Source of the DNA: an uncultured Alphaproteobacteria bacterium
GTDB taxonomy: Bacteria; Pseudomonadota; Alphaproteobacteria; Rhizobiales; Xanthobacteraceae
Direction: 5' to 3'
DNA: 64,000 bases
Assembly (NCBI GenBank): GCA_963744975.1
Contig: CAVUVR010000002.1
Span: 2,785,069-2,849,068 of the forward strand
Each line of letters opens with the position of its first letter. Position 1 is the stretch's first letter. The notes beneath the pieces were generated by a model. It did not search any database. It worked only from the letters and a program-made list of their open reading frames with translations, and was not told where the DNA came from. This document shows, in pieces, positions 11,541-14,876 of this stretch. The position numbers and the translations under genes are program-made.

Positions 11541-14500
11541 TCAATGCGCCTCGTCCCAGTTATTCGCCGCCCGCGCATCGACCTGCAGCGGCACCGACAG
11601 CAGCACGGCGGGGAACGGCGCGTCCTGCATGGTGTGCTGCACCACCGGCAGCGTCGCCGCGACTTCGTCGTCGGGCACTTCGAAGATCAGCTCGTCATGC
11701 ACCTGCAGCAGCATCTGAGCCGAGAGTTTTTTCGCGGCCAGCGCATCCTCCATCCGGATCATGGCGCGGCGGATGATGTCGGCGGCGGTGCCTTGCAGCC
11801 GCGCATTGATGGCGGCGCGTTCGTTGAAGGAGCGCACCGAGGCGTTGCTGGCCTTGATGTCGGGGTAATGACACTTGCGGCCGAACAGCGTCTCGACATA
11901 GCCGTGCTTGCGGCAGAATTCGCGCGTTTCGTCCATATAGGCGCGGATGCCGGGGAAGCGTTCAAAGTATTTCTTGATGTAGGCGGAGGCTTCCTCGCGG
12001 GCGATGCCGAGCTGGTTGGCCAGGCCGAACGCCGAGATGCCGTAAATGATGCCGAAATTGATCGCCTTCGCCCGGCGGCGAACCTCGCCCGGCATGTCCT
12101 TGACCGGCACGCCAAACATTTCCGACGCGGTCATGGCGTGAATGTCGAGCTTGTCCTGGAACGCCTGCTTCAGCACGGGAATGTCGGCGATCTCCGCCAG
12201 CAGCCGCAACTCGATCTGCGAATAATCCGCCGACACCAGCTTGTGGCCGGGTGTCGCGATAAAGGCGCGGCGGATTTTGCGGCCGTCCTCGGTGCGCACC
12301 GGAATGTTCTGCAGGTTGGGCTCGTTCGACGACAGCCGCCCGGTGGTGGTCGCCGCCAGCGCGTAGGTGGTGTGGACGCGATGGGTCTGCGGATGCACAT
12401 AGGTCGGCAGCGCGTCGGTGTAGGTCGATTTCAGTTTCGACACCTGCCGCCATTCCAGGATCTTTTTCGGAAAGTCATGGCCCTGCTCGGCAAGCTCATC
12501 GAGCACCTGCGCGGTGGTGGACCATGCGCCGGTCTTGGTCTTGCTGCCGCCGGGCAGTCCCATCTTGCCGAAGATGATGTCGCCGATCTGCTTCGGGCTG
12601 CCGACATTGACCGGCTCGCCGGCAATCTCCTGGATCTCCGCTTCGACCCGTGCCGCGGTCTGCGCGAAATCGGCCGATAATCGCGACAGCACCTGGCGGT
12701 CGATCGAGATGCCGCGCCGCTCCATCCGCCCGAGCACGCCGACCAGCGGCCGCTCCAGCGTCTCATACACCGCGGTCATGCGCTCGGCGGCGAGCCGCGG
12801 TTTCAGCACCCGCCACAGCCTCAAGATCACGTCGGCATCCTCGGCGGAGTAGGCGGTGGCGCGGTCGATCGCGACCTGATCGAAACTGAGCTTGTTCTTG
12901 CCGCTGCCGGTGACCTCACTATTGCTCAGCACGGCGTGGCCGAGCCGGCTCTCGCTAAGCGCATCCAGCCCATGCGAGTTGCGCCCGGCATCGAGCGCAT
13001 AGGACATCAGCTCTACGTCGTCATGGTTGCGGATGGTGATGCCGTGCTGCGCCAGCATCACGGCCGAGAATTTGATGTCGAAGCCGATCTTGAGCAGCCC
13101 CGGCGATTCCAGCAGCGGTTTTAGCGCATCGAGCGCGTCCGATGCCTTGATCTGGTCCGGCGCGAGGCCGGCGGCGAACAATCCTGCACCATCACCGGAC
13201 TGCTTGTGGCTGAGCGGGATATAGCAGGCGTCGTTGGGCCCGAGCGCCAGCGCGATGCCGCACATCTCCGCCTGCATCGGATCGATCGAGGTCGCCTTGG
13301 CGTCGATGGCGACGTGGCCTGTGTCGAGGATCCGCGCGATCCAGGCGTTGAGGTCGGCGATCGTGCGAACGGTCTGGTATTTGTTGCGATCGATTTTGGT
13401 GTGGCGCGCGGCTTCCGTCCGCGCTGCCGCAAGCGCTTGCGGTGTCAGCGCGATCGCGCCGCGGTCCGCTTTCGCCGGAGCTTGCGGCCGCTTCTGGTCA
13501 CCAAGGGGAAGCTCGCCGACGCGGGATGAAAAAAGATTGGTGCCCTTGGCCGCATCATCGGGTTCACCCCCCAGCGACGCCGTCGACGGTGAATCCGGCG
13601 GCATTCCCTTCGAGGCAAAGGGACTCTTCAAATCCGTCGCGGCGTCGATGCCCGACGGATCGATCTCGCCATATTCGGCGACGCGCCGGGTCAGCGTGGA
13701 AAATTCCATTGCCTTCAAGAAGGCAATCAGTTTGCGGGCATCGGGTTCATGTACCGCGAGTTCATCGAGTGGCACGTCGAGTGCAACCTTGTCGTCGAGC
13801 AAAACAAGTTGTCGTGATGTCAGGGCTAGTTGCTTATTTTCCACTATTTTGGCGACCGTTCCTCCGATCACTCGCGACAAATTGCGAGCCCGCAGTATGA
13901 GTGTGCAAAACTCATTTCCTGCGCTCGCTAGTCTTTCGATCGTTTCGGTATCGGCGGTTGGGTTTCCCTTCTTGTCCCTGGGTAGAGCCGTCTCACCAAA
14001 TTTTGTTTCCAGTACTTTTCCAACCTGCGCAGCTGAACTCGGCTTTATCGGCTCGCCAGCAATCTTAGTGATCTGCTTTTCGAGCGCGGACAGCTTGGCC
14101 TTCAATTCTTCTTCGATCTTCTCAGGATGATCTTCTGCAGAAAGAATTCGATCAAGCGATCCCAATTCAGCGATTAATGTGCTTGCAGCCTTCGGGCCCA
14201 CGCCTGGAACGCCCGGGACGTTATCGACAGAATCTCCGATCAGCGCCTGGACCTCGACCACCTTCTCCGGCGGCACGCCGAATTTTTCGATCACCTCGGC
14301 AATGCCGAGCCGGCGATCCTTCATGGTGTCGTACATGGTGACGCAGTCGGTCACCAGCTGCATCAGGTCCTTGTCCGAGGAGACGATGGTGGCGCTGGCG
14401 CCGCGCTCACAGGCGATCCGCACATAGGTCGCGATCAGGTCGTCGGCCTCGAAACCGGCCTGCTCCAGGCACGGCAGGTCGAACGCGCGCACCGCCTCGC

Positions 14501-14876
14501 GGATCAGCGGAAATTGCGGGATCAGGTCGTCGGGGGCGGGCGGCCGGTGCGCCTTGTAGGCGGGATAGAGCTTGTTGCGGAAGGTGACTTCGGACTTGTC
14601 GAAGATGATGGCGAGATGGGTCGGCCGGTTATCCTCCGGCATGTCGCGCAGCAGCTTCCACAACATGTTGCAGAAGCCGAGCACGGCATTGACCTGCAGC
14701 CCGTCGGACTTGCGGTTGAGCGGCGGCAGCGCGTGATAGGCGCGGAAAATATAGGAGGACCCGTCGACCAGGAAGATGTGGTCGCCCTTGCCCGGGGCTT
14801 TGACGGCAACGGGCTTTGCGGCGGCGGATTTGGCGGCGGCGGGTTCCGCAGCGGGTTTTTGCGAGGATTTCGGCAT
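11541..14876 (-). CDS. polA: DNA polymerase I with an internal thumb-like insertion
   Basis: LVDGSSYIFRAYH 5'-nuclease, 3'-5' exonuclease region, TGRLSS.EPNLQN, DYSQIELR, AKAINFGIIYG and QVHDEL motifs; 1111 aa, longer than usual. Confidence 0.98.
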   Translation of the reverse strand: MPKSSQKPAAEPAAAKSAAAKPVAVKAPGKGDHIFLVDGSSYIFRAYHALPPLNRKSDGLQVNAVLGFCNMLWKLLRDMPEDNRPTHLAIIFDKSEVTFRNKLYPAYKAHRPPAPDDLIPQFPLIREAVRAFDLPCLEQAGFEADDLIATYVRIACERGASATIVSSDKDLMQLVTDCVTMYDTMKDRRLGIAEVIEKFGVPPEKVVEVQALIGDSVDNVPGVPGVGPKAASTLIAELGSLDRILSAEDHPEKIEEELKAKLSALEKQITKIAGEPIKPSSAAQVGKVLETKFGETALPRDKKGNPTADTETIERLASAGNEFCTLILRARNLSRVIGGTVAKIVENKQLALTSRQLVLLDDKVALDVPLDELAVHEPDARKLIAFLKAMEFSTLTRRVAEYGEIDPSGIDAATDLKSPFASKGMPPDSPSTASLGGEPDDAAKGTNLFSSRVGELPLGDQKRPQAPAKADRGAIALTPQALAAARTEAARHTKIDRNKYQTVRTIADLNAWIARILDTGHVAIDAKATSIDPMQAEMCGIALALGPNDACYIPLSHKQSGDGAGLFAAGLAPDQIKASDALDALKPLLESPGLLKIGFDIKFSAVMLAQHGITIRNHDDVELMSYALDAGRNSHGLDALSESRLGHAVLSNSEVTGSGKNKLSFDQVAIDRATAYSAEDADVILRLWRVLKPRLAAERMTAVYETLERPLVGVLGRMERRGISIDRQVLSRLSADFAQTAARVEAEIQEIAGEPVNVGSPKQIGDIIFGKMGLPGGSKTKTGAWSTTAQVLDELAEQGHDFPKKILEWRQVSKLKSTYTDALPTYVHPQTHRVHTTYALAATTTGRLSSNEPNLQNIPVRTEDGRKIRRAFIATPGHKLVSADYSQIELRLLAEIADIPVLKQAFQDKLDIHAMTASEMFGVPVKDMPGEVRRRAKAINFGIIYGISAFGLANQLGIAREEASAYIKKYFERFPGIRAYMDETREFCRKHGYVETLFGRKCHYPDIKASNASVRSFNERAAINARLQGTAADIIRRAMIRMEDALAAKKLSAQMLLQVHDELIFEVPDDEVAATLPVVQHTMQDAPFPAVLLSVPLQVDARAANNWDEAH

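Follow-up and report, generated by a model that had tools for sequence, protein, structure and literature searches.

A polymerase thumb-like module within the 5'-nuclease domain of DNA polymerase I from a Bradyrhizobium-like alphaproteobacterium

The polA gene located on a 64,000-nucleotide stretch of contig CAVUVR010000002.1 of an uncultured alphaproteobacterium (referred to here as the window; positions are counted from its first letter) encodes a DNA polymerase I (Pol I, PolA) in which a module of approximately 84 residues, homologous to the thumb of bacterial family A polymerases, replaces a loop of the 5'-nuclease (FEN) domain just after the helix-three-turn-helix (H3TH) motif. The gene is the single-copy housekeeping DNA polymerase I gene of a Bradyrhizobium-like host. 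In a genome-wide search, its product was the sole family A polymerase and the sole FEN-type 5'-nuclease in the 5.95-Mb genome; the enzyme must work. PolA of the window is the known enzyme Pol I, equipped with a thumb insert that was previously undescribed among the papers searched.

A first-pass annotation, made from the sequence alone, had pointed to 72 residues in the nuclease region resembling the thumb of the same protein. Translation of positions 13869-14084 and 12432-12647 (both minus strand) returned the two quoted segments, and the 22 identities counted by hand over the 72 gapless columns were reproduced exactly; 20,000 shuffles gave a mean of 4.9 (standard deviation 2.1) and a maximum of 15. 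With BLASTP, insert and native thumb were matched with E = 4e-13 at 32% identity. The insert piece alone (127 residues, window 13800-14180) was aligned to positions 4-97 of the Pfam profile PF00476 with 40.6 bits (E = 2.1e-10), above the curated cut-off of 34.3 bits. Since these positions represent the thumb part of the profile, it is the thumb that the insert matches. The whole protein scored 557.7 bits with the same profile in two stretches, the best of which covered profile positions 2-381 of 381. When the PDB sequences were searched in full with a profile built from 23 inserts, every one of the 60 matches listed was a family A polymerase, aligned over its thumb. The highest score was obtained for Bst (45.6 bits, E = 6e-11), followed by Klenow (40 bits), Taq (35 bits), Mycobacterium smegmatis Pol1 (33 bits) and Pol nu and Pol theta (approximately 20 bits).

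The structure predictions agreed with the profile searches on a thumb-derived insert. Residues 236-362 modelled alone with AlphaFold2 (AF2) from an inserts-only alignment yielded a thumb-like hairpin with a predicted local distance difference test score (pLDDT) of 90.1 and the topology long helix, short helix, beta-hairpin, short helix, long helix. The helices of the model (16-38, 47-58, 75-83 and 87-101, with a beta bridge 65/71) have the register of the thumb of M. smegmatis Pol1 at an offset of 515; the thumb of the latter has helices at 528-553, 562-569 and 589-599 and a hairpin at 579-585 (PMC7102940). The top 50 Foldseek matches of the insert model were all Taq, Bst or Klenow (E. coli Pol I) polymerase chains, with a probability of 1.00, root-mean-square deviations of mostly 2.2-3.8 A and 85-105 aligned columns. 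Modelled in context (residues 25-405), the domain reached a pLDDT of 93.2 (93-97 in the insert) and a predicted template modelling score of 0.88. This model matched FEN-family structures, namely ExoIX (TM-score of 0.90 of the target), M. smegmatis FenA, Taq and T5 FEN, which indicates that the nuclease fold is intact around the insert. The insert resembles the family A thumb (helices H, H1, H2 and I) in sequence, helix-hairpin-helix topology and conserved DNA-contact positions. It differs in that it is detached from palm and fingers and grafted on the nuclease domain, that the KLKSTY motif at the base of helix I, which leads into the palm, is lost (RNLSRVIGG is found instead), and that the tip reads DKKG, not TKTG.

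To set the junctions, PolA was aligned with its insert-less counterparts in three genomes of the genus. This alignment placed the insert within the FEN domain after the H3TH motif, as first annotated, and not between the exonuclease-like domain and the palm like the native thumb. Residues 228-356 (129 residues) take the place of 45 residues in the genus-mates (LLKRAGE-IKQPKRREA-LIENAEKARISRR), a net gain of 84 residues; the junctions fall between SAED and HPEK and between NLSR and VIGG. The flanks are altered as well. Upstream of the insert the window reads GVPGVGPKAASTLIAELGSLDRIL versus GVPGIGIKTAAQLIVEYGDLETLL in the insert-less genus-mates, and downstream it reads RVIGGTVAKIVENKQLALTS, unlike the genus-mates. 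The nucleotide identity to the latter is 80-97% up to approximately 14247, 33-73% in 14246-13797 and 80-90% below 13797. Outside this segment, 27-30 identities per 30 residues to the genus were counted in most of PolA other than the variable linker and the exonuclease-like region. Because the drop in identity also covers the FEN flanks, what is foreign is a cassette of approximately 450 nt (residues ~211-360), larger than the insert; the cassette includes a diverged H3TH region and diverged C-terminal FEN helices. The first-pass annotation had described the insert alone as foreign; the foreign nature was borne out, and the boundaries had to be widened. The GC content is 49.6% in 13801-14040 and 68.3% in 12601-12660, in agreement with the earlier values, and the GC content at third codon positions (GC3) is 47% in the cassette compared to 83% in the rest of the gene.

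A sharp GC drop within a conserved gene is what a chimeric assembly or a frameshifted annotation might produce, and a selfish element such as an intein could be imagined at the same place. Both are very improbable. The same in-frame architecture was found in more than 40 independent assemblies, long or complete contigs among them, so that a chimeric assembly is excluded in practice and the frame is preserved as claimed. Neither a Hint, intein nor endonuclease family was matched up to E = 1, and the junctions are unlike those of inteins, lacking C/S...HN ends, which also fits the first reading of the letters. An overlapping or antisense gene was considered and rejected, since none of the other frames, sense or antisense, is open in every one of the six cassettes examined. 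Furthermore, the insert is under purifying selection as a protein (see below).

Approximately 40 Pol I genes of Alphaproteobacteria were found to carry the insert. A search of 5.8 billion proteins yielded 31 insert-bearing PolA proteins of 838-1125 aa, with insert identities from 96% down to 39%; carriers include Bradyrhizobium sediminis (on a 5.55-Mb contig) and a metagenome-assembled genome (MAG) of Tardiphaga. When species genomes were scanned with a pattern, further carriers turned up among MAGs labelled Afipia, Microvirga, Beijerinckiaceae, Xanthobacteraceae and Hyphomicrobiales. In samples of genomes, counted apart from that of the window, the insert was present in 1 of 400 of the genus, 5 of 200 of the family, 2 of 400 of the order and 2 of 400 of the class. 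The insert is thus rare and patchy, and the architecture is as unusual for a Pol I as had been supposed. A full-text literature search gave no description of a thumb insert in the FEN domain of Pol I, and a 2026 survey of bacterial polymerases presents the PolA1 architecture without such an insertion, the word "insertion" occurring 0 times in its main text (PMC12926913). One 9.4-kb contig binned with an actinobacterium (DASWMG010000251.1, locus L073, labelled as a Solirubrobacterales MAG) also contains a polA cassette of the Beijerinckiaceae type; this contig is probably mis-binned.

The cassette is under purifying selection as a protein. The ratio of nonsynonymous to synonymous substitutions (dN/dS) of the cassette ranged from 0.06 to 0.18 in five pairs and was as low as in the rest of polA. 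Its synonymous sites were saturated (proportion of synonymous differences approximately 0.7), compared to a dS of 0.6-0.9 in the rest of the same genes, which indicates that the cassette alleles are older than the backbones carrying them. Relations between PolA of the window and single insert-bearing proteins varied accordingly by segment: the backbone is 96.7% identical and the cassette 79.8% in P0016, while the values are 95.8% and 96.9% in P0005 and 81.7% and 83.7% in P0012. In approximately unbiased (AU) tests, the backbone tree was rejected on the cassette data (log-likelihood difference 154) and the cassette tree on the backbone data (562); each best tree was compared with the other tree, a somewhat liberal procedure, yet the differences are very large. 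The simplest reading of these sequence comparisons is that cassette alleles have been exchanged among alphaproteobacterial polA genes by homologous recombination. On the same grounds, the cassette of the window is taken to have arrived from the polA of another bacterium which already carried the insert.

The base composition of the cassettes was not uniform among the carriers. GC3 values of cassette and backbone are 47 and 83 in the window, 51 and 79 in the other carrier of the genus, and 57 and 85, 34 and 76, 42 and 82, and 35 and 70 in further carriers with low cassette values. GC3 is at equilibrium in a family genome of another genus (85 and 86) and in the Beijerinckiaceae MAGs (87-98), and in one Rhizobiales genome (L077) cassette and backbone agree at 54 and 56. 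Low GC3 (34-58%) is found in very divergent cassettes in GC-rich hosts (L039-L042, L045, L063, L066, L068, L075 and L076) and is absent where the cassette seems to be fixed in a clade (L069-L072, L038 and L044). Since low GC3 recurs in divergent cassettes of different hosts, it may not simply mean a recent arrival. Two readings fit these values. Either the cassettes were imported repeatedly out of a pool of lower GC content, of which the genome with 54 and 56 may be a member, or GC3 decays where sporadic carriage leaves the cassette few partners for recombination, as GC-biased gene conversion or selection is relaxed.

The source of the thumb was sought inside and outside the genome. Within the genome, only the insert and the native thumb were matched, apart from two other matches with E of approximately 1, and no donor was found. 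The absence of another copy in the genome and the 22 identities in 72 positions (32% identity by BLASTP) are in line with the earlier statement that the insert is not a recent self-duplication. The native thumb of the same protein is no nearer to the insert than other thumbs are, and the insert profile scores alphaproteobacterial and other native thumbs alike (48-63 bits). A phage had been suggested as a possible source. No relatives were detected by tblastn in 50,697 phage records or 72,556 plasmids, no candidate was confirmed among the viral contigs scanned, and no T7-type polymerase was present among the 60 PDB matches listed for the insert profile, the best of which were bacterial Pol I thumbs. 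The insert is foreign, but a derivation from a phage polymerase is unsupported and was rejected for the sequences searched. Among 1.84 billion representative proteins, 16 matches and no close donor were obtained; with only 36-38 bits and 29-42% identity for the best native thumbs, a donor lineage cannot be singled out. In a FastTree phylogeny of 71 thumb and insert segments, the main inserts (type A) formed one clade with a support of 0.995, whereas the deeper placement is unreliable. A few further inserts (type B; P0034, P0049 and G752) share flank features, and hence probably their origin, with type A. Separately, a 942-aa family A polymerase without 5'-nuclease (P0050) was noted, in which a long insertion in the polymerase domain ends in VHNS; this protein looks intein-bearing and phage-type and is unrelated to the inserts described here.

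A different thumb-like insert was found at the same FEN site in an alphaproteobacterium of another family (G724; protein P0051 of 1036 aa, locus L045, G724:C77:3360-6752). This insert (type C) still ends in WRFYTKLSSTYVDLL, with the KLSSTY motif kept, and is a singleton among the 5.8 billion proteins. With 46% identity, the native thumb (residues 513-598) of an ordinary, unrelated 881-aa PolA is closer to it than the native thumb of P0051 itself (39%); GC3 is 58 in the cassette and 88 in the backbone. Judged from these sequences, the insert of P0051 looks like a separate, younger capture event, which suggests that the loop after the H3TH region may be a favoured landing place for a thumb module. 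A tentative extension of this idea is that at least two independent captures in the same loop (types A and B on the one hand, type C on the other) gave rise to a portable second DNA grip, which would spread as a polA cassette and change how the downstream duplex is held in nick translation.

The function proposed for the insert, with a probability of roughly 0.55, is that of an extra duplex-DNA-gripping element on the flap nuclease. In the complex of M. smegmatis Pol1 with DNA, the thumb contacts the duplex backbone across the minor groove, with N558, S561 and Q564 on the template strand and T581, K582, T583, T586, T587, D589 and R611 on the primer strand (PMC7102940). Positions 17-101 of the insert profile align with residues 532-616 of this enzyme over a span of equal length, and the ten contacts map to K278, S281, Q284, D301, K302, K303, P306, T307, D309 and R331. 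Of the eight thumb columns that are invariant among the inserts, six are contact positions (K278, S281, D301, K302, K303 and R331; hypergeometric P = 1.2e-5). The H3TH region, for its part, engages the duplex adjoining the flap junction (PMC11260460); this, together with the retained contact residues, is the reason why a second duplex grip is proposed. As a self-contained antiparallel helical hairpin with adjacent ends, the thumb could occupy a surface loop without disturbing the FEN fold. K278, S281, D301-K302-K303, D309 and R331 would then act as the thumb residues contacting the DNA backbone across the minor groove, and the module would provide a second grip on the duplex next to an element that already holds duplex near the flap junction. 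While flaps are cleaved and nicks translated, the nuclease domain would then be expected to bind the downstream duplex with higher affinity or to stay on it for longer.

Several points weigh against this function. The contact positions are also the most conserved ones in thumbs generally, and folding constraints could account in part for their being kept. The tip has changed from TKTG to DKKG, and one contact threonine is a proline in the insert. The mapping onto the M. smegmatis enzyme rests on the equal-length profile match and the secondary-structure register, not on a residue-by-residue alignment. Finally, any benefit has to be conditional, given that the majority of relatives manage well without such an insert. 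The insert might be a tolerated passenger, that is, a thumb fragment without a DNA-binding role in a permissive surface loop, kept because its removal or damage would misfold an essential enzyme. This is rather unlikely, although three observations would fit it: the H3TH region does end in a surface loop at the insertion site, more than 99% of the genomes sampled outside the family and 195 of 200 within it gave no insert, and in close pairs the amino acid sequence of the insert diverges approximately 2 to 4 times as much as the remainder of the protein. A passenger is hard to reconcile with a dN/dS as low as in the rest of polA, with invariant residues concentrated on DNA-contact positions and not only in the hydrophobic core, and with the independent capture of a different thumb at the same site. 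Clean loss by means of insert-less alleles should also be easy, yet the cassette has been kept across subclades, e.g. in the Beijerinckiaceae MAGs.

Slightly less likely still is a role in protein docking or intramolecular coordination, in which the insert would pack on the native thumb or the exonuclease-like module, position the mobile FEN domain or recruit a partner. Long antiparallel helical hairpins often mediate protein contacts, and the hand-over of DNA between the polymerase and FEN sites of Pol I is still unresolved. The conserved surface of the insert, however, corresponds to the DNA-contact residues of real thumbs, with lysines added at the tip, and no candidate partner was identified, neighbouring and co-occurring genes not having been examined.

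Insertions that alter DNA handling are found in related enzymes. The apicoplast FEN/Exo of Plasmodium falciparum (PfExo) likewise has an insertion in a FEN-family nuclease that is present in some lineages only, and experiments have shown that this insertion alters DNA binding as well as the range of substrates (PMC11260460). It differs from the insert of the window in being a 153-aa, low-complexity, partly disordered segment with an Fe-S ligand and not a folded polymerase-derived domain. Family A enzymes have been remodelled in a modular manner around the thumb in other cases, with altered DNA handling. In T7 DNA polymerase, the thioredoxin-binding loop is an insertion in the thumb, and POLIB of Trypanosoma brucei is said to carry a thumb insertion as well. 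In both, the insertion is made into the thumb, whereas in PolA of the window the thumb itself is inserted and the nuclease domain is the recipient.

Apart from the extra thumb-like module within the FEN domain, PolA of the window resembles canonical PolA1 enzymes (E. coli, Taq, M. smegmatis Pol1) in its three domains in canonical order, its FEN carboxylates, its full-length polymerase domain and its single copy (Table 1). The metal-binding carboxylates of the FEN domain (D38, D93, E143, D145, D146, D168, D170, D215 and D218) are invariant in 30 insert-bearing PolA proteins, as is the GVPG.G motif; the PF01367 profile was matched with E = 9.6e-23. In the 3'-5' exonuclease-like domain, IDAKAT stands in place of DTET as the Exo I motif (window 13290-13320, residues ~519-528). 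The motif is degenerate also in the three insert-less genomes of the genus (DTQA, ETRA and VAKA), while PolA of other genera in the family retains DTET. Proofreading was therefore probably lost across the genus independently of the insert, as far as the motifs indicate. A link between the insert and the loss of the motif was rejected, as the insert-less genus-mates lack the motif too and some insert-bearing PolA proteins keep DTET. Since such substitutions occur in about half of the PolA1 enzymes (PMC12926913), a degenerate Exo I motif does not exclude membership in PolA1.

Table 1. Features of the polA gene in the window
Feature	Position	Strand	Details
polA	11544..14876	minus	1111 aa; open reading frame 11541-14876
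5'-3' exonuclease N-terminal (resolvase-like) domain	14277..14777	minus	residues 34-200; Pfam PF02739, E = 2.5e-55
H3TH / SAM-fold region, first part	14085..14276	minus	residues 201-264, with GVPGVGPKAA; PF01367 profile 1-66
Putative recombination cassette	13797..14246	minus	residues ~211-360; low GC3; insert and FEN flanks unlike insert-less PolA of the genus
Thumb-like insert proper	13857..14126	minus	residues ~251-340; helix H-like, H1-like, beta-hairpin tip, H2-like and helix I-like elements
Hairpin tip	13965..13976	minus	invariant D301-K302-K303, near-invariant G304; equivalent of T581-K582-T583-G at the thumb tip of M. smegmatis Pol1
Resumed C-terminal helices of the 5'-nuclease	13677..13856	minus	residues 341-400; alignment with insert-less PolA, in-context AF2 model
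3'-5' exonuclease-like domain	12792..13379	minus	residues 500-695; Pfam PF01612, E = 1e-21
Polymerase domain	11550..12695	minus	residues 728-1109; Pfam PF00476
Native thumb segment	12432..12647	minus	residues 744-815; paralogue of the insert; BLASTP and Pfam

The architecture described here is a case of domain shuffling within one gene family, in which a polymerase subdomain would be reused by the neighbouring nuclease, and it places a compositionally distinct and apparently laterally exchanged cassette in an essential housekeeping gene. For enzyme engineering, it points to a loop of the FEN domain that tolerates a folded, putatively DNA-binding insert. The insert also touches the unresolved question of how the polymerase and the 5'-nuclease of Pol I share one DNA in nick translation and Okazaki-fragment processing. 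As of 2020, there was no structure of a Pol I polymerase domain on a gapped primer-template with a downstream duplex or flap (PMC7102940). A natural Pol I with a second thumb-type module is a ready-made experiment in this respect and, if the proposed grip is true, could help to trap the complex of Pol I with a flap and downstream duplex.

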